Assembly (NCBI GenBank): GCA_965261085.1
Contig: OZ253442.1
Span: 3,584,001-3,648,000 of the forward strand
Direction of reading: 5' to 3'
From: a bacterium
GTDB lineage: Bacteria; UBA8248
Length of the DNA stretch: 64,000 bases
Each line of letters begins with the position of its first letter. Position 1 is the stretch's first letter. Shown piece after piece: positions 1,032-43,925 of the stretch. Position numbers and translations under genes: made by a program. Under the pieces are notes generated by a model, which was not told the origin of the DNA, did not search any database, and saw only the letters and a program-made list of their open reading frames with translations.

Positions 1032-1739
1032 CTATTCGTCATTTCCTCCCGGTGGTCCCGTTCCGAGTTTCTCCAGCCGCTCAACCCACGCATTAAAGTG
1101 AGGACATTTGGAGCGGATGTTCTCCAGACCAATCAGTTCGGCCATCTGTGAGCCGTTTGTCGGCTTCGAGTCTTCATATTCGGGAAATTGATCGCTAATT
1201 CGCTTCGATGGAGCCGAATGTTGGCCGTCGTCGATCAGTTCCGGGGACTGGACTTTATCGGCTATTTTCTGCAAAGCGGAGATTTTGGAATCCGCATTAT
1301 CAAAGAAGGAAGCGAACCGGGATACATCGGAAAACAAATAAGCCTCGAATTCATGCAACTGAATGAAAGGGATGAAGCGACTATTGCCGGTCTCATCAAG
1401 CCAGGACTTTTCGAGAGCCTCCACACGCTTATATGGGTCGTGGCGTAATTTTTCAGCCTCCTCAATGCCGGGGAAATTCGCATGTAGGGCGTAAAGATCT
1501 ATCATGGTGGTGAAAAACACGTGATTGCCCGACTCCTGTTTGAGTCGGCGGTTGATGTCCTTCTGCATTGCCGTGAAGTTTCTTCCGCCCCCTCGGTTAA
1601 CTCCGCCTTTCTTTCTAGCGTGCGCAATCAGAACCGGTTTGTGCATGAAGACATCGAAAGTAGCCAGATGCGGCTTCAAGACCGTATCGGCGAATGTTTG
1701 TTCTGTTTGACCTTCGGCGAAGAGATGGAGCCGAACCAT
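1032..1739 (-). CDS. DUF4276 family protein (TOPRIM-like partner of the AAA ATPase)
   Basis: Start MVRLHLFAEGQTE overlaps the ATPase stop (TGATG); EG-x-TE, HEFEA and PSKRI motifs. Confidence 0.8.
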   Translation of the reverse strand: MVRLHLFAEGQTEQTFADTVLKPHLATFDVFMHKPVLIAHARKKGGVNRGGGRNFTAMQKDINRRLKQESGNHVFFTTMIDLYALHANFPGIEEAEKLRHDPYKRVEALEKSWLDETGNSRFIPFIQLHEFEAYLFSDVSRFASFFDNADSKISALQKIADKVQSPELIDDGQHSAPSKRISDQFPEYEDSKPTNGSQMAELIGLENIRSKCPHFNAWVERLEKLGTGPPGGNDE

Positions 1740-2839
1740 CAGTGCGGCCCCGCACCGAGGATATTTTTCTCCCAGATTTCCCCGAGCGAGTAGTCCTCCA
1801 GCCATGCGTCGAGCTTTTCGGTTTCCGGTCTGTCGAACGTCGTCGCTTCCTTATTTCGCTCGACGACCACGATATCCTCCGGCTCGAAACTATCGAGAAA
1901 CGCGCTGGACTGCGTGCTGACGAGAACCTGTGTATGCTGACTTGCGGCGCGAAACAACGAGGCAATAATATTGAGCGCATAGGGGTGTAATCCCAGTTCC
2001 GGTTCATCCACCACTATGAGTATTGGAAGGTCCTCCTTGGGTTGCGACAGAAGCGAAATCAGGCAAATGGCCCGCAGCGTACCGTCCGAGAGTTGATGGG
2101 GTCCAAAAACGAGATCGGATTCGCAATGCCGCCAATTGAGAATGATGTCCTTGGAATCAGTCGGCTCCAGATCGAAATCCTCGAAGAACGGCGCCACCTG
2201 TCGAATCGTCCTCACGATCCGGTGATATACTGTTTCTTTGTAAGACTTCAGTTTATGGAGTATCGCCGCTAAATTCGCCGCGTCGGGCATGAGCCAGCGA
2301 TTATCGCTAACGTAACAATACTGCCGGACTCTCGATGTCGGTGATGTATCGTGAAAGTGATAGACGCGACAGCCATTCAGCAAATACCTGAGCGTTTTCG
2401 CCGCGGGATCGTCCTTGTAAGCATCGTCTCCAATCCGCGTTTCCTGATGAGCCGCCCCCAGCGATACGAATTTTGGGCTGGGATAGCCTTTTTGCTGGAA
2501 GGAAAGTATCTCTTCGGCAAAAATCAACGAATCACCGGCAGCATGGAACAACCTCATTCGATAGGTGTCGGTTCCATTCTCCACCTCGAACAACATTTCC
2601 GCTTCCAATTGGGGGGTTACCTTGGGGCCAAAGTGCAAATTGGCCGTGGCTCGCCCCGTCGCCCCGATATGTTTCTGAAGCCGTCCGCCCATGAGCTCGC
2701 TCACCAGCTTGAAAAAAGCAATGAAGTTGCTCTTGCCGGCCCCATTGGCGCCGATTAGAACATTGAGCGGTCGGAGTTCCAGCGTCATCTCTTTGATAGA
2801 CCGAAAGCCCTCGAGCTTGATTCTTTTCAATTTTGACAT
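1739..2839 (-). CDS. AAA_21/AAA_15 (ABC-type) ATPase, putative defence ATPase
   Basis: Walker A GANGAGKS, signature LSDGT, Walker B VVDEPELGLHP; translationally coupled to DUF4276. Confidence 0.9.
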   Translation of the reverse strand: MSKLKRIKLEGFRSIKEMTLELRPLNVLIGANGAGKSNFIAFFKLVSELMGGRLQKHIGATGRATANLHFGPKVTPQLEAEMLFEVENGTDTYRMRLFHAAGDSLIFAEEILSFQQKGYPSPKFVSLGAAHQETRIGDDAYKDDPAAKTLRYLLNGCRVYHFHDTSPTSRVRQYCYVSDNRWLMPDAANLAAILHKLKSYKETVYHRIVRTIRQVAPFFEDFDLEPTDSKDIILNWRHCESDLVFGPHQLSDGTLRAICLISLLSQPKEDLPILIVVDEPELGLHPYALNIIASLFRAASQHTQVLVSTQSSAFLDSFEPEDIVVVERNKEATTFDRPETEKLDAWLEDYSLGEIWEKNILGAGPH

Positions 2840-3259: not shown

Positions 3260-3732
3260 AACGCATTTCCCCGCATTTGCGACGCCCGTGAAATTTCCGG
3301 ATTCCGGTATCGTGCGCGTGGCACAGGGCGAAGGATGCCCCGCATTGGCCGGATTTGGCCTGTAAGGGGGGAGTGATGTTGAAAACCGCGTTTTCCGTAA
3401 GGGCCGTTCGAAAGCAGTCCCTAAAGCATGTTGTCCCGTCTGATCCGAAGGGGCGAACTCTCGCTCGGGTTCGGCTGAAGGAGGGACATGCTCATGGACC
3501 CGGCAATCACAAGAAAATGAAGATAATCCAATTTTCGATAAATATCGATAAATTCACGGTGTTTTTCGATAAATTCCTGAAAATGATACCGATGTAAAAA
3601 ATATGATAATGTATATTATTTCAATTAGTTGCGATATATATCTAATGTATGAAATAAATATTTTATCGAAATTTATCGAATAAAAAAGTTTTTTAGGTTC
3701 CCCGCATTTTCCCACATTTCCCCGCATTTGCG
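3260..3732 (+). repeat. AT-core non-coding repeat element, copy 1
   Basis: CCCGCATTT repeats at both ends; TCGATAAAT x3; IHF-like TTTCAATTAGTTG at 3619-3631; inverted TTTATCGAA x2; homologous to 36690-36960 and 39176-41320. Confidence 0.85.
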
Positions 3733-3892
3733 CACCGAGCACGGCAGGCTCCCAGAGAAGCCCGAACCCCACGCCCCGGGCGGGATAGACGACCCGGAAG
3801 CCTCTCGCGCGTTCCAGCGCGGCGGTTTCGTTCATGGGCCGAACGTGGTATATTCGAGGCTCATCCACACTGCCTTTGGAGACGCGCCATAT

Positions 3893-24687: not shown

Positions 24688-25113
24688 ATGGACCAGCGTC
24701 TCAGCATCATCACCCTGAGCGTAGACGATCTTCCGCGTGCGCGCGCGTTCTACGAGGCGCTCGGCTGGCGTGTGGCGAGCGAGGAGCACGCCGATTCCAT
24801 CGTCTGCTTCACGCTCAACGGAATCGGTTTCGCCCTCTATTCCCGCGCCAAACTCATCGAGGATATCGGGCCACAGGCCGGCAGCGGCGACGCGACGGGT
24901 GCGGTCACCCTGGCCTACAACGTTCGCGCACGAGAGGACGTCGCCAAGGTGCTTGCCGAAGCGGAACGCGCCGGCGGCGTCATCGTCAAGCCTGCGCAGG
25001 ATGTCTTCTGGGGCGGGCATTCGGGATATTTCCAGGATCCCGACGGACACTTTTGGGAAGTCGCCTGGAACCCCTTCTCACCGCTCGATGACAAGGGAAA
25101 CTTCGCCTGGTAG
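24688..25113 (+). CDS. VOC/glyoxalase family protein
   Basis: ITLSVDDL..ARAFYE, FWGGHSGYFQDPDGHFWE. Confidence 0.9.
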   Translation: MDQRLSIITLSVDDLPRARAFYEALGWRVASEEHADSIVCFTLNGIGFALYSRAKLIEDIGPQAGSGDATGAVTLAYNVRAREDVAKVLAEAERAGGVIVKPAQDVFWGGHSGYFQDPDGHFWEVAWNPFSPLDDKGNFAW

Positions 25114-25302
25114 GCGGTGGGATCATAGCACGCAAGAAACCGCATCCCGGCGAAGACTCAAGCGGAGCACCCGAGTTCCCGACGGCTCGAACCTTTTGCA
25201 GCTTCAGGCTTCATGTCTGATGAGGGTGCGCAGAGCGCAAGCGCCTCTCAAATTCCTTGCCGAAGCCTCCTCCCTCACACCCGAAGCGCGATGAGCAAGA
25301 TT

Positions 25303-25576
25303 ACTCCCCCCTTGAGAGTCATTTCCGACAAATGCAGGAGGGAATGTCGCAGAAGCCGAGCCTCTGGCGAAGGCTGATGCGGTGGGGGGGTAATTCCGAG
25401 CGAGGAATTGCGAACCGATGTTCTATTCGTCCGCTGCAATCGCTCCTTCATCAGTCACGAGAATTTCTCCTTTTTCAGTCGAAATTCACCCCCCACCGGC
25501 GCGACTGCGGGCTTACGCCCTTGTCTTGCCGACAATCCCTCATTCTTCAATCGGGATTGACCCTCAAGGGGGGAGT
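25303..25576. repeat. Long palindromic MITE/REPIN-like element (ACTCCCCCCTTGAG...CTCAAGGGGGGAGT family)
   Basis: 14-bp perfect terminal inverted repeat; internal homology to 35107-35310 and 52670-54645. Confidence 0.85.
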
Positions 25577-25675
25577 GAATTCTAAGACCTCAAGTAGAAG
25601 GTGGTCCAAACAAGAGTGATTCGCCGACACCGGCTCCGAGCGGACGGGAGAGCAGGATCAGTGCGATTTTCCGTT

Positions 25676-25879
25676 CGTCATTCCGGCGCATGCCGGAATC
25701 AAGGCGGACGAGACGTTCATTGGTTCTGGTCAACCTTGCGGTTGCCACCGGCATCCGCCGGAATAACGGCGATGTGGCCTATTGCTCACAATGCGAGAGG
25801 GAGTACGCTTCCCTCCCCGGACTCGATACGAAAAACAGGGCGGACACGCAGGTGGCAGACATATATGTCTGACCCTACG
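25676..25879. repeat. REP cluster: GTCATTCCGGC-type pair plus a GTAG-type REP
   Basis: CGTCATTCCGGCGCATGCCGGAATC (also at about 62794); CAGACATATATGTCTGACCCTAC. Confidence 0.75.
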
Positions 25880-25929
25880 GGCATGCGCCGAACGAGAGAG
25901 CAAGATTGCCTGAACTCGATGCGACGCGC

Positions 25930-25975
25930 CTCAACGCTCATCGACCAAGCGGCGCGCCTTCACGTCGCGCATCGG
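25930..25975 (-). repeat. Duplicated 46-bp 3' end of the CoA-ligase gene
   Basis: Identical to 26984-27029, including the stop codon. Confidence 0.95.
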
Positions 25976-26123
25976 GTCTGGTCAACCTTGCGGTTGCCAA
26001 CAGAATGCGCCTGAATGACGGCGTTATGAAGCAGTCCAGACCGATGCACAAGACGCAAATTGGTGGAGACATCCTGCGAATCACACTGTACTGTGAAATG
26101 GTTTCACTTTCCTTACACAACCG

Positions 26124-26879
26124 TTATCTGGAACCTTTGCAGTACCAATTGACGTCGTCGTGAACATCTAATTGCCAAGTCAGTGGTAAAAGAACGGACC
26201 GAGCCTCTCCTAATGCATCTTCAGCTTCGGTACGTGTCGGTCGATAGCCTTCTTTATGAACCACTTCATTCCTCAGCTCAGGTATATTCGTGCGCCTTAT
26301 TCGCTCAAGAAAGTGTGCAAGTTTCCTGTCTACTAACGAGTTCAATTCGGCATCCTCGGGAGGGTTAGAATTAGCAAGAGCAACTATGTACGTCTCGGAT
26401 TCACCTAGATTGGATGGTGGAATAGAATCAATGGCTAAATGCAAGAAAAGGTTACGCATCTTCCAAAAAGTGAATTTCTTTGTTTTACTCGAAAGCTCCC
26501 GAGATAACTGGTTCATTTTAGCCTGGGCATTGGAACCCCGGTTAGAGTTGGCTCCAAATGGCACATAGAGAAGCTTTACTCTCAAATATAAGCTGAAAAA
26601 CATTTCATATGCTTGACATACATTTAGAATGCAGTTCATGTAGCGCTTGGCTTCAAGAAGATCATGACAAGAATAAATGATTGCTTCGTGCCGTTCATTT
26701 ACGCTGTCGCCATTGAGCCAAAAACCTCCTTTACAATCAAAGCAAGATACATTGGCTCCAAATATCGGTTCGAACGTACAGAGATCCGATGCGCGATTGA
26801 ATACAAGCTCGTGACCACACCGAGGACAATCAACAACGATATTTTCGTAGTCGGAATATTTTATCTTTGCTGTCAGCAT
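26124..26879 (-). CDS. AT-rich hypothetical protein with an N-terminal Zn ribbon and a HEPN-like RxxxxH motif
   Basis: CPRC...CFDC; LRNEVVH near the C-terminus; AT-richer than the flanks. Confidence 0.65.
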   Translation of the reverse strand: MLTAKIKYSDYENIVVDCPRCGHELVFNRASDLCTFEPIFGANVSCFDCKGGFWLNGDSVNERHEAIIYSCHDLLEAKRYMNCILNVCQAYEMFFSLYLRVKLLYVPFGANSNRGSNAQAKMNQLSRELSSKTKKFTFWKMRNLFLHLAIDSIPPSNLGESETYIVALANSNPPEDAELNSLVDRKLAHFLERIRRTNIPELRNEVVHKEGYRPTRTEAEDALGEARSVLLPLTWQLDVHDDVNWYCKGSR

Positions 26880-26984
26880 TGTTTTTCGGTTTCCTGCAAA
26901 CTCGACCCATTCATGACTTACCGCTATCGAAGAGGAATTTGTATCATACCGATATGGCTTCGATCCGCCTCGCAGTTTCGTATC

Positions 26985-28325
26985 TCAACGCTCATCGACC
27001 AAGCGGCGCGCCTTCACGTCGCGCATCGGATCGTGAATCACGCCCGGGGCCACGAATTCGAGAACCGGCCTTATCATCACCGCTCCCCGCACCCGATCCG
27101 GCAAGGACGCGCCGAGCCGCTCGCGCTCGGAATCCTCGGCTTCGAGGCGAATGATCAACTCATCCATCGAATCCGCGTCGTCGGGTGTTGATTTGCGAAT
27201 CCGGATCTGAAACTCGCGAATCACCCGCTCTTTCGCCAGAAGGTCGAAGACGATCTCGGGGTTCATCAGCATCCCGCGCACCTTGAGGAGGTCACCCGTC
27301 CTTCTCGGCAGGCGCACGATGCGCTCGCCCACCCGCCCGCAGTGCGGACAAGGCTCCCATTTGAGCGCAATGAGGTCTCCGATGAGATAGCGCAGAAACA
27401 CCGTGCCCCTGCGGTGCAGGTGCGTGAGGGCTATCGCCCCCTCCTCCCCCTCGGCGACACGCTCGCCCGTCTCGGGGTTCACCACTTCGAGCAGATAGAG
27501 TTCGGGCACGACGTTGTGCGGCATCGCCTCGTTCGCGCACTGCACGAGGCCGCCCTGCATCTCCGTCGCCGCGTAGCGTACGCGCACCTGCGGGTCGCGC
27601 GCCCCGAAATAGCGCAAGTGATCCATATACTCCTCGCGCAGGGCGTCGCTCACCGCTTCGCCCGTGGTGAGCACCATGCGCGCGCGCGGGAGTTTGACGC
27701 CGCGCTCCCGCGCCCTCCTCAGGAACCGGCGGACGAAACTCGGCACCCCCCAGATGATGGTGGCCCCCGAATCAGCCACCACGTCGAGAGCCTCATCGAG
27801 CGACCTTCGCACGGGATATTCAGGATGCGGGCTACCCGTCAGCGCGCTCACCACGGGAAGACCCATGATTTCCGCGGAGCGCACGCAGCAGAGAAACCCA
27901 CCCAGGGGCATGGGCGAGAGCGGGTAGAGATTCGCGACGACGTCCCCGGCCCGCAGGCCTTCCGCCTCGTTGCAGGCCCTCGCCTGGAGCATGATGTGGT
28001 ACTGATCGTGCGTGGTGTTGAAAAAAGGCGACGGTCGCCCGCTCATGGTGCCCGTGGTGTAGGCCACGTTCCACATCGTCCGCTCCTCGAAGGGAAGCTC
28101 GGGCAGCCAGGCGGGATCGAGGCTGAAATCCTCGGGCGCGGCCATGAAATCCTCTTTTTTCGTCAGGGGGATTTTCTGGAGATCGTCGAGTTCCTGTACC
28201 GCCTCGGGGATGAGGTTCGCCTCCGCGAAGCGGCGCTTGTAAAACGGATGCGCCCGCCCGCACAGGGCGACCATTCTCCGCAAGCGTTTTCTCCTCAACT
28301 CGTGCAGCGCATCTTGCTCGTTCAT
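26985..28325 (-). CDS. Phenylacetate-CoA ligase-like AMP-binding protein
   Basis: YTTGTMSGRP, TGE, YAATE, RYLIGD, RTGDLLKVRG. Confidence 0.85.
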   Translation of the reverse strand: MNEQDALHELRRKRLRRMVALCGRAHPFYKRRFAEANLIPEAVQELDDLQKIPLTKKEDFMAAPEDFSLDPAWLPELPFEERTMWNVAYTTGTMSGRPSPFFNTTHDQYHIMLQARACNEAEGLRAGDVVANLYPLSPMPLGGFLCCVRSAEIMGLPVVSALTGSPHPEYPVRRSLDEALDVVADSGATIIWGVPSFVRRFLRRARERGVKLPRARMVLTTGEAVSDALREEYMDHLRYFGARDPQVRVRYAATEMQGGLVQCANEAMPHNVVPELYLLEVVNPETGERVAEGEEGAIALTHLHRRGTVFLRYLIGDLIALKWEPCPHCGRVGERIVRLPRRTGDLLKVRGMLMNPEIVFDLLAKERVIREFQIRIRKSTPDDADSMDELIIRLEAEDSERERLGASLPDRVRGAVMIRPVLEFVAPGVIHDPMRDVKARRLVDER

Positions 28326-36689: not shown

Positions 36690-36960
36690 ACGCATCTGCC
36701 CGCAATTCCCGTCATCGCGTCTTCTCCGGGATGTGTCAGAATCCGCCGCTAGAAGAGGAGGCTTTTTCATGGAACCCGGCGATAGGGCAAGAGTAAAAAC
36801 GGCAATCTCTCCCGCATTGGTCGAGATTGACCACCGTGAGGAGGTGAGGCGTACTCATCGACTCAGGCGTGACAAGGAAATATGAAAATAATCCAATTTC
36901 CTGAAAATATCGATAAATTCACGGGGTTTTTCGATAAATTAACGGGGTATTTCTGCAAAT
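36690..36960 (+). repeat. AT-core non-coding repeat element, copy 2 (truncated)
   Basis: ATGAAAATAATCCAATTTCCTGAAAATATCGATAAAT core; GAGGAGGCTTTTTCATGGAA block shared with copy 3. Confidence 0.8.
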
Positions 36961-39091: not shown

Positions 39092-39674
39092 GTCGCGTTC
39101 CTATGCTTGAGGTGGATGATTGGGGGCTACCATACCGCAAGGCCACGGATGCCGCCATGCTTGCCGGCCTATCGGGGAGAGGGGAAATGCGGGGTAGTGC
39201 GGGCAGATGCGGGGGACGAAAAAACTTTTTTTATTCGATAAAATTCGATAAAATATTCTTTTTCTGCTTTAATATAACGGCATAACTATTTGAAATAAAA
39301 CCGATTATCGTTCCATTCTCTCTAGCGTTACTTTTCAGATATTTATCGAAAAAACCCGTCAATTTATCGATATTTTCAGGAAATTGGATTATTTTCATTT
39401 CCTGCGTCACGTTTAAGTCCATGAGTCGAACGCGAGCGAGGAGCGAGCGTTCGCCGACCGAGGAAGGAGGGTTCGCTGTCGCGAGAGAGGAGTGCAGGTT
39501 TACGTCTTCGTAGGGGTGTCGAATTTCCCCGAGGAGGGGGGAGTTCGAATGAAGCCGCCCGCGTTCTTCTAGGATTGCCATCTTCACTCTCACCCCATCG
39601 CCTGATTCCATGAGAAAGCCTCCTCTCCTTTTGATCAATTCCGACTGATGAAGAAGGTCAAACGCGAGTGAGGA

Positions 39675-41196
39675 GGGGTTGTTGAAAAACCCCTGACTCT
39701 ATGCTTGGATGTATGGATATTACGCGCCCGAGAAGGGAATATCCGCGATGTTGGGACGCAAGAACCGCGCCCAGATGGATTTGTTCATCACCGGTTCGCT
39801 GGAGAGGTTGATTCCCGAGGATCACATATTGGCCCGCGTGAACCGCGTTCTGGACCTGAGTTGGCTGCGCGAGGAAGTGGCGGATTGTTATTGCGCGGAC
39901 AACGGCCGTCCTGGGATCGACCCCGAAGTGGCGGTTCGGTTGATGTTGGCGGGCCTTCTGCTGGGGTTCGTGCACGACCGTCGGTTGATGCGCGAGGCGC
40001 AGGTGAACATCGCGATCCGGTGGTTCATCGGTTACGGGCTGGAGGATCGGCTGCCGGATCATTCGAGCCTGACGCGGATACGGCAGCGCTGGGGGGAGGC
40101 CCGGTTCCGGGAGATATTCCGCCGCACGGTCCGTGCGTGCCTGGATGCGAAGGTGGCCAAGGCCGAAGTCGTGCACGTGGACGCCTCATTGATCCGCGCG
40201 GACGTGAGTTGGGAGAGTCTGGTGGAGCGTCACGTGGACGAGGTGATAGCGGAGAACCCCGTCGAGGAGGAGGCCGGGAAGAAGGGTGGAGGAGGCCGCC
40301 GTGGCGGGGGTTCCGGGAAGGTGAGCCGGACGGACCCGGACGCGCGGCTGGCGAGAACGGGCGGGGGATTCGAGCCGAGCTACAAGCAGCACGCTGTGGT
40401 GGACGACACGCGCGGGGTGGTGCTCGACGTATCGGTGACGGAGGGTACGGTGAACGAGCGTGAGGTGCTCGAATCGCAGGTGGAAGCGGTATGCGAGGTA
40501 TCGGGGCGCGCGCCCGCGATGGTGACGGCGGACTCTGGCTACGCCTACTCGAAGGTCTACGCGGCCCTGGAGCGCCGGGGTGTGGCCGCGCTCATTCCGG
40601 CGAAGAGGGAACCCTCGCAGAGCCGTGTTCCGTTGCGCCTGTTCCGCTACGACGCGCGGCACGACATCGTGAAGTGTCCGCGCGGCAAGATACTGAGCCC
40701 CCGTCGGCCCGCAAAGGGGGGGCGTTATTATCGTTCGAAGACCCGTGATTGCGCGGGCTGCGCGCTTCGCGAGGATTGCCTGCCGAAGGCGTGGTCGAGC
40801 AAGGTGGTGTTGGTTCCGCATGCGTATCCGGCGCTGTTGCGCGCGCGCCGGCGCCATGCGCGATGGAGGGAGGAGGAGCGGCGGATGTACCGGCGTCATA
40901 TGTGGCGCTCGGAGGGCTACCACGGCGAGGCGAAGACCTGGCACGGGCTTGCGCGCGCGGTGCGGCGCGGTCTTGAGAACATGAAGATACAGTCCTACCT
41001 GACGGCGGCGGCGATCAACCTCAAGCGGCTCTCCGCCGCACTTGCTGCAAGGTTATTCGCCCTCTGGAGGGCCTGGTCGGCCCGGGAAGAGCCTCTGTGC
41101 GTCCATCGCGGCCTCGCAAGCTGCGCGGGCTTCCTGTCCGCCGCCGCGTGACCCTCCATACCGCCCGCTCCCGAAACCGGGTTATTCAACAACCCC
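39675..41196 (+). mobile_element. IS1182-family insertion sequence, copy 1 (1522 bp)
   Basis: Terminal IRs GGGGTTGTTGAA...; 5-bp TSD GAGGA; same transposase as 52842-54363. Confidence 0.93.
39748..41151 (+). CDS. IS1182-family DDE transposase
   Basis: IPEDH, GRPGIDP, PDHSSL, HVDAS, TDPDA, ADSGY, C-terminal E..GEAK. Confidence 0.92.
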   Translation: MLGRKNRAQMDLFITGSLERLIPEDHILARVNRVLDLSWLREEVADCYCADNGRPGIDPEVAVRLMLAGLLLGFVHDRRLMREAQVNIAIRWFIGYGLEDRLPDHSSLTRIRQRWGEARFREIFRRTVRACLDAKVAKAEVVHVDASLIRADVSWESLVERHVDEVIAENPVEEEAGKKGGGGRRGGGSGKVSRTDPDARLARTGGGFEPSYKQHAVVDDTRGVVLDVSVTEGTVNEREVLESQVEAVCEVSGRAPAMVTADSGYAYSKVYAALERRGVAALIPAKREPSQSRVPLRLFRYDARHDIVKCPRGKILSPRRPAKGGRYYRSKTRDCAGCALREDCLPKAWSSKVVLVPHAYPALLRARRRHARWREEERRMYRRHMWRSEGYHGEAKTWHGLARAVRRGLENMKIQSYLTAAAINLKRLSAALAARLFALWRAWSAREEPLCVHRGLASCAGFLSAAA

Positions 41197-41533
41197 GAGG
41201 AGCAAGCGTTTGCCGACCAATGCGGGAGAAATCACTTTCCCGCGTCTGGCGCACGATACCGAAATACGGGACTTCAGGGAGTACGGCAATTGCGGGGAAA
41301 TGCGGGGAATTGCGGGTTAAGCCGGGGGAGGAATGAAGTGGGGACTAGATATGATGGCGCGGCAAACGAAATCACGATGTAGAAACTTTAACCGTCTGTA
41401 TTTGGTTTTTCCGCTTGCCGAAATACTTCTTTCACTTCATTTATTTTTTCCGCCTTTGCGAATTTCGGAATACGTCTTGAAGATGGATATACTATTGGTA
41501 GGAAATTATACACAACAGTAACATCTACACATT

Positions 41534-42436
41534 TCATTGTCTGGAAGAAGTGCGAGGCTCATAATCGAGTAGGGATGCATCCGCGAGTTGCTTCAACATG
41601 TCGTCGTTGAACAAAGGCGAATTCGAGTCCCATTCAATCCGGGGTGTTACGTTGCGCCTGGCTAAAATAGGTGCCGCAAATACAAACCGCTCGTCATACC
41701 GTCGGTAAATCGTCTCGAAGAATCGTTCGAAGCGTAAAGGACTTTCCTTTGGCGGGAAGGTGTCGAGTAATTTTCCGGTATTCGGGCCGCTCGTTTCCAC
41801 CAAAGCGAGGCTGACCGCTTCGTATTTACTGATTGTATCACGCAAATCAGCGCGTCCCTCTAGTTGTTTGAGTGCTGCGTGATAGCGGACGATTCCGTCC
41901 ACCGGATTCCCGTCTTTCTGGAGCGCAACGTCGTTGACAGCGAGAGCAGGATCGCTCCCGGCACGATGCGCTCGAAGTACTGAGAAGAATCCGATTACGA
42001 GCGCGGCGTAGGTCATATGTAGGTTAGTGCATTCCCCAACCGCTTCCTCCATTCGGTTAGTGAGATTGCGAAACGCATTGCCGGTGGTTTTGCAGGAGAT
42101 AGCAATGGCGGGGCCAATGCCCGGTTTTTCCACGACTACGTCTACATCTTTGGTCTTCAGGCCACCTAATACAGTTGCCTCTTTACCGCTTGCCGCATTC
42201 GGATCGAAGTGCAACTCCTTTTTGACCACCTTGAACGGCGGATGGGGTTTTATCTCATCGGGATGAAACCCGCCTTCGATGACCAGACGGCAGGCGATAT
42301 ACCAATGGATTGGCTTTACGATGTGTTGACTTTGCGTCTTCTCTTTGGATGTAGCAAGATGGTGGAAAGTTTCTTTGGCCCCGAGCCAATGACAGACTTG
42401 CCAATCCTTCTTCGTAAAATCTTCAAGCCGCTTCAT
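41534..42436 (-). CDS. Putative type II restriction endonuclease (PD-(D/E)XK)
   Basis: KDVDVV...ISCK-x13-E with NRMEEAVG (XhoI/PaeR7I-like motif); overlaps the MTase 3' end. Confidence 0.7.
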   Translation of the reverse strand: MKRLEDFTKKDWQVCHWLGAKETFHHLATSKEKTQSQHIVKPIHWYIACRLVIEGGFHPDEIKPHPPFKVVKKELHFDPNAASGKEATVLGGLKTKDVDVVVEKPGIGPAIAISCKTTGNAFRNLTNRMEEAVGECTNLHMTYAALVIGFFSVLRAHRAGSDPALAVNDVALQKDGNPVDGIVRYHAALKQLEGRADLRDTISKYEAVSLALVETSGPNTGKLLDTFPPKESPLRFERFFETIYRRYDERFVFAAPILARRNVTPRIEWDSNSPLFNDDMLKQLADASLLDYEPRTSSRQ

Positions 42437-43925
42437 AATGCCTCCAAGCCTGAAGCGCTGTAATGCTGTCTAAAACAACCTTCTTTACATCCTCTGAAAG
42501 CACCATTTCGGATGGGACCAAGATATTACCCGCCTCTCGGGGTTCCAGCTTTAACATGCCTCCGCCTAACGGATGACCTTCAATTTCGCAGCTAAACTGG
42601 AAGACCCCCGAGCGAAGCGCCGCTTGAATACGTGGTAACTTCGATTTGTCCTTTAGCAGCACTGCATGTAGTGAATTCGTGCACGCGCAACGCGCCGCAT
42701 TCTGCACGAAAGAGACCCGTCGGCCGGACATATAGCTAAGGAAAAAATTGGGAATCTTGACGTCTGGGACTACGTACCAGGGATTGCGCGTTCGACATTT
42801 AAATGCGTCAGCGGCTTGCAAAGCTTGCGAAGTGTGCAGGTATGCCAACACGGATTTTGGGAGTTTTTGTTCTTTTCTCAGGCGTAAAAGTAGAGTTTTC
42901 TGATCCTCTCGGAGCCAGCGGCTGACTGCGGATGGATTGACCTGCACAGGCGGCAAAGAACGTGCGTTTCGCACCGTCGTTTGCAAACAATTGTACGGAA
43001 TACGAAGTTTTTCGACCTCAGACGGGCGCAGGTGGAAAAAGTCGTTTGCCCCCGAAACATAGCCAATATTAACTTGCGCGAATTCACGAAAGCGTAAGCT
43101 GTTCTCATCTGAAGCGAGTTGCTCGTATAGATTTCGGCCCATGGCGGGTAACAAAAAAGGCCGCAGGCGCTTGTTCCACGAGATACGCCAAGTTTCCACA
43201 TTTATATCCGTTGTTTCAGTTGGCGGCATTTCACGGAAAGTAAACTGTTCCAGAACACTCAGTTTGATATGGCTAGTGGACCCGCCTTTGCCGTCAGCGT
43301 AGAGTAGCCAGCAGTCTTCCGATAGTTTTGGGAAAAGCTTTTTTTTAACTGCGACAATTTGTAGGTGGTCGAAATATTTTATTAAATATTCGATCAGCGG
43401 AGCACTATACGGCGCATGTCCGATTTCTGCCGGAACAACGAAAGCCATGCGTCCGCCCTGATGTAGGAGGTGGGCCGTTACAACTAGAAAAAGCGGCCAG
43501 GAAGAGGTGAGTTTTGAGAAAGTGGCCCCAAGTTCAGCGCAAAGAGCTATGGCCCTATCACGCTGAACACCTTTGAAAAGCTGATAGCGGATGAAAGGGG
43601 GATTCCCGGCGGCGCATTCGAAACGCTCTACGGTGTTGCTCGCCCATGCAAAAAAATCACCCTCGTGAACCATCGCTTTAGGCGCGCGATGCATAGCGGC
43701 GGGAGTGGCAAATGGGTCTAGTTCGATACCGACACTATTGGGATGGCCGGCGATGAAGCGCCCATCCCCGCAAGATGGATCCAGAAGGCGATCTTCAGGA
43801 TTCCTGACAGCCCAACTAAGCAGACTACGTACTACCGGGTCAGGGGTATAGTAAGCTCCCTTCTCTTTTGCGCCATTGGCATCGCAGGAGAGATATCCAC
43901 TATACCTGTAGTTACCCGTGCCCAT
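42423..43925 (-). CDS. N6-adenine DNA methyltransferase (gamma class)
   Basis: GAYYTP, LLDPSCGDG (motif I), GNPPF (motif IV), C-terminal GGGMLKLEP. Confidence 0.9.
   Translation of the reverse strand: MGTGNYRYSGYLSCDANGAKEKGAYYTPDPVVRSLLSWAVRNPEDRLLDPSCGDGRFIAGHPNSVGIELDPFATPAAMHRAPKAMVHEGDFFAWASNTVERFECAAGNPPFIRYQLFKGVQRDRAIALCAELGATFSKLTSSWPLFLVVTAHLLHQGGRMAFVVPAEIGHAPYSAPLIEYLIKYFDHLQIVAVKKKLFPKLSEDCWLLYADGKGGSTSHIKLSVLEQFTFREMPPTETTDINVETWRISWNKRLRPFLLPAMGRNLYEQLASDENSLRFREFAQVNIGYVSGANDFFHLRPSEVEKLRIPYNCLQTTVRNARSLPPVQVNPSAVSRWLREDQKTLLLRLRKEQKLPKSVLAYLHTSQALQAADAFKCRTRNPWYVVPDVKIPNFFLSYMSGRRVSFVQNAARCACTNSLHAVLLKDKSKLPRIQAALRSGVFQFSCEIEGHPLGGGMLKLEPREAGNILVPSEMVLSEDVKKVVLDSITALQAWRHYEAA

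Follow-up and report, generated by a model that had tools for sequence, protein, structure and literature searches.

A short intergenic repeat, of which one copy lies at positions 3260-3732 of the window, is probably a multi-copy chromosomal attB for F-type ICEs with two tandem P4-like tyrosine integrases, as judged from comparison of junction sequences. The window is a 64,000-nucleotide stretch (G000:C1:3584001-3648000) of G000, whose genome was assembled as one contig of 4.27 Mb with a GC content of 58.7%. G000 and its relatives are sponge-associated, uncultured symbionts with metagenome-assembled genomes, and the genus set comprises 23 genomes (G000 and 22 others). The flagged element belongs to a mosaic intergenic repeat found throughout the genus; this copy is unoccupied and has partly decayed. 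We call the conserved core of the repeat the T-module. An integrase attachment site is a known kind of object; what is unusual here is a target that lies between genes, is present many times, is under constraint and differs in dialect between species. The parts of copy 1 are:

3260-3732, plus strand: copy 1, full unit, about 470 bp
3260-3281, plus strand: left CCCGCATTT array (G-array L)
3306-3318, plus strand: GGTATCGTGCGCG, a conserved block resembling a -10 element, approximately 25 bp past the G-array
3355-3597, plus strand: remnant of a small ORF running through the T-module, its frame closed in this copy by a stop at 3595
3532-3585, plus strand: T-module, the conserved core of the repeat family, with three TCGATAAAT boxes in this copy
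3564-3574, plus strand: TTTCGATAAAT, the 11-bp box that is the putative ICE crossover core at occupied sites elsewhere, intact here
3619-3631, plus strand: IHF-like site TTTCAATTAGTTG
3662-3696, plus strand: two inverted boxes TTTATCGAA, then an A-run, a G and a T-run
3697-3732, plus strand: right CCCGCATTT array (G-array R)

The motifs listed by the initial annotation were all found where it had placed them, including the TCGATAAAT boxes starting at 3535, 3545 and 3566 and the inverted TTTATCGAA boxes at 3662 and 3672. Two arms of 19 nt (3534-3552 and 3662-3680) are 95% complementary and separated by 109 bp, and the ends of the copy carry CATTTCCCCGCATTTGCG as identical 18-nt direct repeats (3264-3281 and 3715-3732). 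The IHF-like site TTTCAATTAGTTG presumably differs by a single mismatch from the consensus, which we take to be WATCAANNNNTTR. This block is kept in seven orthologous copies in which the surrounding AT-rich DNA has diverged. An Rfam search of the window at gathering thresholds gave no match.

The T-module is a large family. Searched against the whole G000 genome, copy 1 gave 45 matches, the majority spanning only query positions 291-345. The genome-wide count that the initial annotation had advised gave, with a fuzzy pattern over 4.27 Mb, 74 copies of the core in G000. By 14-mer counts, the T-module is among the approximately five most frequent repeats of this genome. The common part of about 50 bp reads AATTTCTGAAAATA TCGATAAAT TCACGnnGTTTT TCGATAAAT, with the two TCGATAAAT boxes 21 bp apart; TTTCGATAA is retained in 57 of the 74 modules, and an inverted box at +80 to +90 accompanies approximately 7 of them. 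A strict pattern, GATAAATTSACGNNGKTWTTCGATAA, finds 58 copies in G000 and 3 to 49 copies in 16 of the 22 congeners, and none in 18 genomes outside the genus. These motifs are not a product of chance, because TCGATAAAT occurs 167 times in G000 against approximately 12 expected and the reversed control pattern had no match in 41 genomes. Nearly all modules (71/74 in G000) are intergenic, and the arrangement of their flanking genes (18 divergent, 19 convergent and 36 tandem) is as expected if the modules were placed between genes at random. About 44 of 65 modules tallied oppose the direction of replication, a bias that follows from their orientation relative to genes. G-arrays, that is CCCGCATTT-type arrays with a 10-bp period, occupy approximately 40 intergenic places in G000, can point either way and in many cases have a T-module at a distance of 120-160 bp; they are present in 19 of the 22 other genus genomes. 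A distinct repeat headed by a G-box pair has seven copies by strict pattern.

The attachment-site reading comes from occupied sites. In two cases, a sequence with a T-box was found directly upstream of a tandem pair of integrase genes. At G000 217128, the module is cut after ATTTATCGAAAG, continues as ACACGTTCATG... and is followed by two integrase genes, while the far junction (281101) reads ...GCACCT G ATTTATCGAAAAACCCCGTGAATTTATCGA... and passes into the orthologous right flank. ATTTATCGAAA (TTTCGATAAAT on the other strand) is present at both positions as an 11-mer direct repeat bounding the element, and from these junctions and the mapping of the flanks we deduce an insertion of 63,973 bp (64.0 kb). 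As in an integrated ICE, integrase and transfer genes are thus enclosed by the core direct repeat: two proteins with Arm-DNA-bind_3 and Phage_integrase domains adjoin the left junction, and the transfer genes encode a TrwC relaxase, the TrwB coupling protein, TraG_N, TraH, TraN, TrbC, TraC and TrbI. This content fits an F-type ICE with two tandem tyrosine integrases. The flank of this site aligns in nine other genomes through the box to query positions 3738-3744, a few bases beyond it, and then stops; the site is empty in G011, G012 and G021, which have an uninterrupted T-module, and the right flank in G012 maps to 283.9 kb in G000. The second site (G000 3813973) holds another copy of the integrase-side end with the same join to the box. 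The flanks of eight genomes start there at query position 173, which is the junction, and among strict-pattern matches a T-module spans the position in G021, G017, G022 and G019. Relatives with an uninterrupted target thus exist for both occupied sites examined.

The break point within the target is shared by independent insertions. All four core-type junctions read (two in G000, two in G021) consist of ATTTATCGAAAG followed by ACAYG or ACGCG. Across the genus, the integrase-side ICE end gave 15 partial matches, every one of which takes in the box (start at query 3729 or lower). A fifth junction, in G004, reads TTTATCGTAAG and then ACACGG. On the other side, the T-modules at 281101, 1871998 and 3699640 are followed by related ICE far-end sequence.

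The integrase-side junction at 3813973 and the far-end-type T-module nearest to it (3699640) are 114 kb apart, and the interval from 3699640 to 3813985 contains another integrase pair (3742652-3745060) and four junction repeats headed by G-boxes, an arrangement that suggests tandem accretion of elements.

The junctions indicate that recombination takes place within the 11-bp box TTTCGATAAAT. After integration, the entire T-module is retained at one junction, with the ICE far end behind it, and the box alone at the other, beside the integrase genes. The neighbouring box, the spacer, the IHF-like site and the inverted boxes may help to assemble the recombination complex, and the CCCGCATTT end arrays could be a second junction motif at which other islands join, in the window the defence cassettes. 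The proposal that the element resembles an att site is therefore kept in part: the core box is the predicted crossover site, but of a chromosomal target (attB) and not an arm-type site of a mobile element. Similarly, a recombinase does appear to act at the core, and the one that had been called unknown can be named, by prediction, as the tandem tyrosine integrases. Because ICE ends hold the 11-bp core alone, the module is the target and not an ICE scar; for the same reason, the ICE does not explain how whole T-modules spread to new loci. Furthermore, since only 2 to 5 of the 74 modules in G000 are junctions, docking may not be what maintains the family.

The full unit upstream of aceE (pyruvate dehydrogenase E1 gene) is found in 9 of the 22 other genus genomes, complete in G008, G006, G005, G012, G011 and G018, partial in G003, G015 and G021, and is absent from the remaining 13; these orthologues are consistent with vertical descent. 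In a seven-species alignment, 37 of 54 T-module columns are invariant, as compared with 44 of 63 in the aceE promoter and leader and 17 of 70 in the adjacent AT-rich tail. The T-module is thus conserved about as well as the aceE promoter, and we conclude that it is under constraint where it sits. Synteny with G008 begins at window position 3261, the first base of the left G-array, and is lacking to the left of copy 1, where the HEC-01 pair lies. Synteny is broken at the CCCGCATTT end arrays, where defence cassettes (HEC-01 and a type II restriction-modification pair) adjoin.

Two further loci share this polarity. At L015, all nine module-bearing genomes scanned have the T-module approximately 100 bp downstream of the stop codon of an EamA-type gene (in G004 in variant form), and 0.3 to 49 kb of variable DNA separates the module from the next core gene. 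Islands sampled there contain AbiE pairs, a methylase, HATPase proteins and a RelA/SpoT-like gene, with no integrase among 39 ORFs scanned from six of them. Six genomes (G001, G016, G009, G010, G007 and G020) have the core genes of L015 adjacent (66-361 bp) without a module. The L024 module is common to G000, G018 and G015, probably also to G005, and has a variant form in G004; the DNA on its G-array side is specific to G000. In all three hot-spots (aceE, L015 and L024) the variable DNA thus lies beyond the G-array side and not at the T-box, which implies that the defence cassettes of the window were not inserted at the T-box. A Tn7-like two-ended element was considered and rejected, as no inverted box cluster was found on the far side of seven islands.

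The window contains two other copies, listed here with the neighbouring genes:

1032-2839, minus strand: HEC-01B/HEC-01A candidate defence pair, adjoining copy 1
36690-36960, plus strand: copy 2, which ends soon after its T-module (truncated), with the core TTTCGATAAAT intact at 36929-36939
39176-41320, minus strand: copy 3, with G-arrays at 39184-39213 and 41287-41316 and T-boxes at 39342 and 39363
39231-39422: intact small ORF in copy 3, 63-aa form
39675-41196, plus strand: insertion sequence of approximately 1.5 kb with IS1182-like domains, located in a hairpin module of copy 3
41534-43925, minus strand: type II methyltransferase and a neighbour with a weak REase match, adjoining copy 3

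Copies 2 and 3 are indeed homologous to copy 1, as originally described, but the description of a three-copy element does not hold, given the 74 copies of the core. All three keep TTTCGATAAAT with their own tail after it and are therefore unoccupied sites. The split of copy 3 by an insertion sequence is borne out by a transposase with DUF772 and DDE domains (39675-41196). We also agree that copies 1 and 3 abut defence cassettes, HEC-01A/B in the first case and the type II methyltransferase with its weak REase match in the second; it is the outer G-arrays of the two copies that face the side where these pairs join. The insertion sequence sits within a REP-like hairpin module, CGGCAAACGC...GCGTTTGAC, which suggests hairpin targeting by the IS1182-type element. 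An IS1182-type transposase is also the sole recurrent neighbour gene of T-modules, with ten upstream occurrences in G000.

Alternatively, the full unit could itself be mobile, a non-autonomous integrative or transposable element (MITE or CIME) that is gene-less and attP-like and is moved in trans by ICE integrases. We regard this as possible but doubtful. Its direct and inverted boxes, the IHF-like site in the AT-rich centre and the CCCGCATTT direct repeats on either side can be read in this way, with solo T-modules as decayed halves, and such a history would be compatible with a docking role. The near-complementary arms and identical end repeats of copy 1 speak for it, as do the patchy occurrence upstream of aceE, the six genomes in which the L015 genes are adjacent without the module, and the homogeneity of box dialects within a genome (see below). 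MITEs, however, have terminal inverted repeats on most copies, whereas the inverted box is rare among T-modules, and orthologous copies have diverged roughly as much as their flanking DNA, as expected under vertical descent. At the single empty site compared (L015 in G001), no target duplication is recognisable, the sequence being too diverged to show one. No autonomous copy with a recombinase inside it, such as the initial annotation had advised looking for, was seen. With neither a target duplication nor a cognate transposase found, its proposal of a 470-bp non-autonomous mobile element could not be substantiated, and its likening of the boxes to transposon ends found no support. A REP/BIME system with a RAYT is rejected because PF01797 (Y1 transposase) has no match in G000. 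As for an origin, direct repeats of approximately 21 bp and an AT-rich patch are present in T-modules, but this suggestion also gained no support and the 74 dispersed copies argue against it.

It is improbable, though conceivable, that the T-module is instead a high-affinity nucleation or architectural site of a nucleoid protein (a xenogeneic silencer or an IHF-type protein) that insulates or silences foreign DNA. The high-affinity motif of Escherichia coli H-NS is tCGATAAATT (Lang et al., 2007; PMC2094087), to which TCGATAAATT of the T-module is equal. The G004 variant is made of phased A-tracts, and low-GC 500-bp bins are enriched around T-modules (0.14-0.36 against 0.144 genome-wide), on both sides and more strongly downstream, contrary to an expectation of low GC upstream only. 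Usually a genome has three or four genes of the HU/IHF family, and G000 exceeds this with six full-length paralogues (at 2195172, 2266530, 3282204, 2376813, 3749300 and 1834444) and one partial match. Against such a role, the GC-rich spacer is conserved too, which a silencer site does not require, and Histone_HNS (PF00816) had no match in the 23 genus genomes while the control matched E. coli, a search that covers the H-NS family of that Pfam entry. We thus rejected an H-NS nucleation site as such.

Conservation of the boxes might also reflect coding, if the unit were the gene of a small protein of 63 to about 100 aa (MKIIQFPENIDKFTGFFDKYLK...NILSNFIE), a reading that we consider very improbable. 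In the frame ATC GAT AAA TTC the T-module reads (M)KIIQFPENIDKFTGFFDKF, and the small ORF encloses the inverted boxes and the IHF-like site. In 10 of the 36 copies listed, exactly 45 open codons follow GAT and end in ..NILSNFIE*; GGAGG and ATG are conserved, 38 unnamed homologous ORFs occur in public data, and the GAT>GAC change of the G007 dialect is synonymous in this frame. In contrast, differences among the 10 intact copies, which were selected for an open frame, are spread evenly over codon positions 1, 2 and 3 (0.334/0.336/0.333), and 342 changes are non-synonymous as compared with 100 synonymous ones. In the majority of the 74 copies the frame that runs through the T-module is short, stops often lying 5-6 codons before and 9 codons after; the frame is closed in G004, the protein has no Pfam match, and its AF2 model has low confidence (pLDDT 56). 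With no third-position or synonymous excess and no constraint at the amino-acid level, we reject a coding gene and treat the small ORF as secondary.

Least credible of all is a mobile promoter or regulon operator: the T-module has an AT-rich patch with a sharp left edge and sits beside genes, but the gene arrangements do not depart from those at random intergenic positions, the neighbours share no function, and a sigma-70 scan downstream of T-modules revealed no enrichment (best score 4.50 against 4.73 in local shuffles), contrary to the ordinary promoters that the initial annotation had allowed for. Small parts of the window occur in sponge metatranscriptome runs; in four such runs, contigs cover aceE from 3881 and the element barely, although contigs cannot show absent transcription.

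The docking-site reading can be placed among known attachment sites. The attB of ICEs and islands with P4/SXT-type tyrosine integrases (Arm-DNA-bind_3 / DUF4102) is usually a tRNA gene or prfC. The T-module system is similar in that a short segment of identity is duplicated at both junctions, integrase genes lie beside one of them and relatives have an intact target. There are two differences: (i), the target is not a gene but an intergenic repeat of approximately 50 bp present about 74 times per genome; (ii), two integrase genes stand in tandem. As a repeat, the closest counterparts are the Correia elements of Neisseria and BIME-1/RIP of E. coli, which are short mosaic repeats present in many copies between genes, their inverted ends enclosing an IHF-type site. 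The repeat described here is likewise found at gene ends and variable regions; unlike them, most T-modules lack an inverted arm and G000 has no RAYT. We know of no integrase-target role for Correia or BIME-1/RIP elements. The open full-text literature, with subscription journals outside it, yielded no ICE that targets REP- or MITE-type repeats, nor any account of these repeats in Nitrospinota. The likeness to the H-NS site, an identical 10-mer present twice per T-module (PMC2094087), may be chance; no H-NS family protein (PF00816) was found in the genus.

The boxes differ between species. In G004, phased A-tract boxes, GTGAAAAAT or ACGAAAAAAT with a period of 10-11 bp, replace TCGATAAAT at all three orthologous sites (loci L150, at about 1180-1420, L200 and L180), and such arrays number 25 in this genome as compared with 0-3 in the others: this is a concerted change of dispersed sites. 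The box is TTCGACAAATTCACG in G007 and GCGAATTCACG in G001. Genomes that are negative by the strict pattern consequently carry, in part, other versions of the module. A simple co-evolution of box and integrase is not supported, since in G004 the boxes have been replaced and yet the ICE end abuts a TTATCG box (TTTATCGTAAG).

More broadly, the approximately 60-74 T-modules per genome could together act as a docking platform that is spread over the genome and kept by selection, its sites lying at gene ends so that insertions are harmless. ICEs and, via the CCCGCATTT arrays, defence islands would be captured and exchanged on it, and the dialects would reflect a contest or co-evolution between host repeat and integrase. 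We put this forward as unlikely, but if true, the platform would be a distributed functional analogue of the integron platform. Integrative elements are normally thought to be tied to single conserved genes such as those of tRNAs, and this conserved repeat probably offers dozens of alternatives per genome. Its neighbours include the variable regions in which these uncultured sponge symbionts carry defence systems, it provides a sequence handle for island boundaries in metagenome-assembled genomes, and it is a testable case of repeats and integrases shaping genome plasticity, with the dialects raising the question of how dispersed sites evolve in concert.

Several observations concern other repeats. 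In G007 (L214, L216 and L224), a parS-like perfect palindrome, GAATTGTTCCACGTGGAACAATC, lies directly upstream of CCCGCA arrays in several places, approximately 30 bp before the G-array at a locus position of about 1500. In G000 this 16-mer is confined to the origin region (640.8-641.2 kb); a parS link was rejected, as the three parS sites of G000 are in that region, far from T-modules, and the genome has a single ParB. G000 is rich in several further interspersed repeats, its commonest 14-mers being CCCTCAAGGGGGGAG (approximately 140 copies), a CCTCAAG heptamer array (approximately 80) and GGGGTTGTTGAAAAA (77). In the window, nearly 1.9 kb without a called gene (25113-26985) contains stacked hairpin and S-type repeat modules, and this gene-free stretch includes a segment of 44% GC at 26-27 kb. 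Finally, positions 1-430 of G000 contain a further full copy of the element, and the contig begins precisely with the left CCCGCA array of that copy, probably because the assembly was opened within the repeat.
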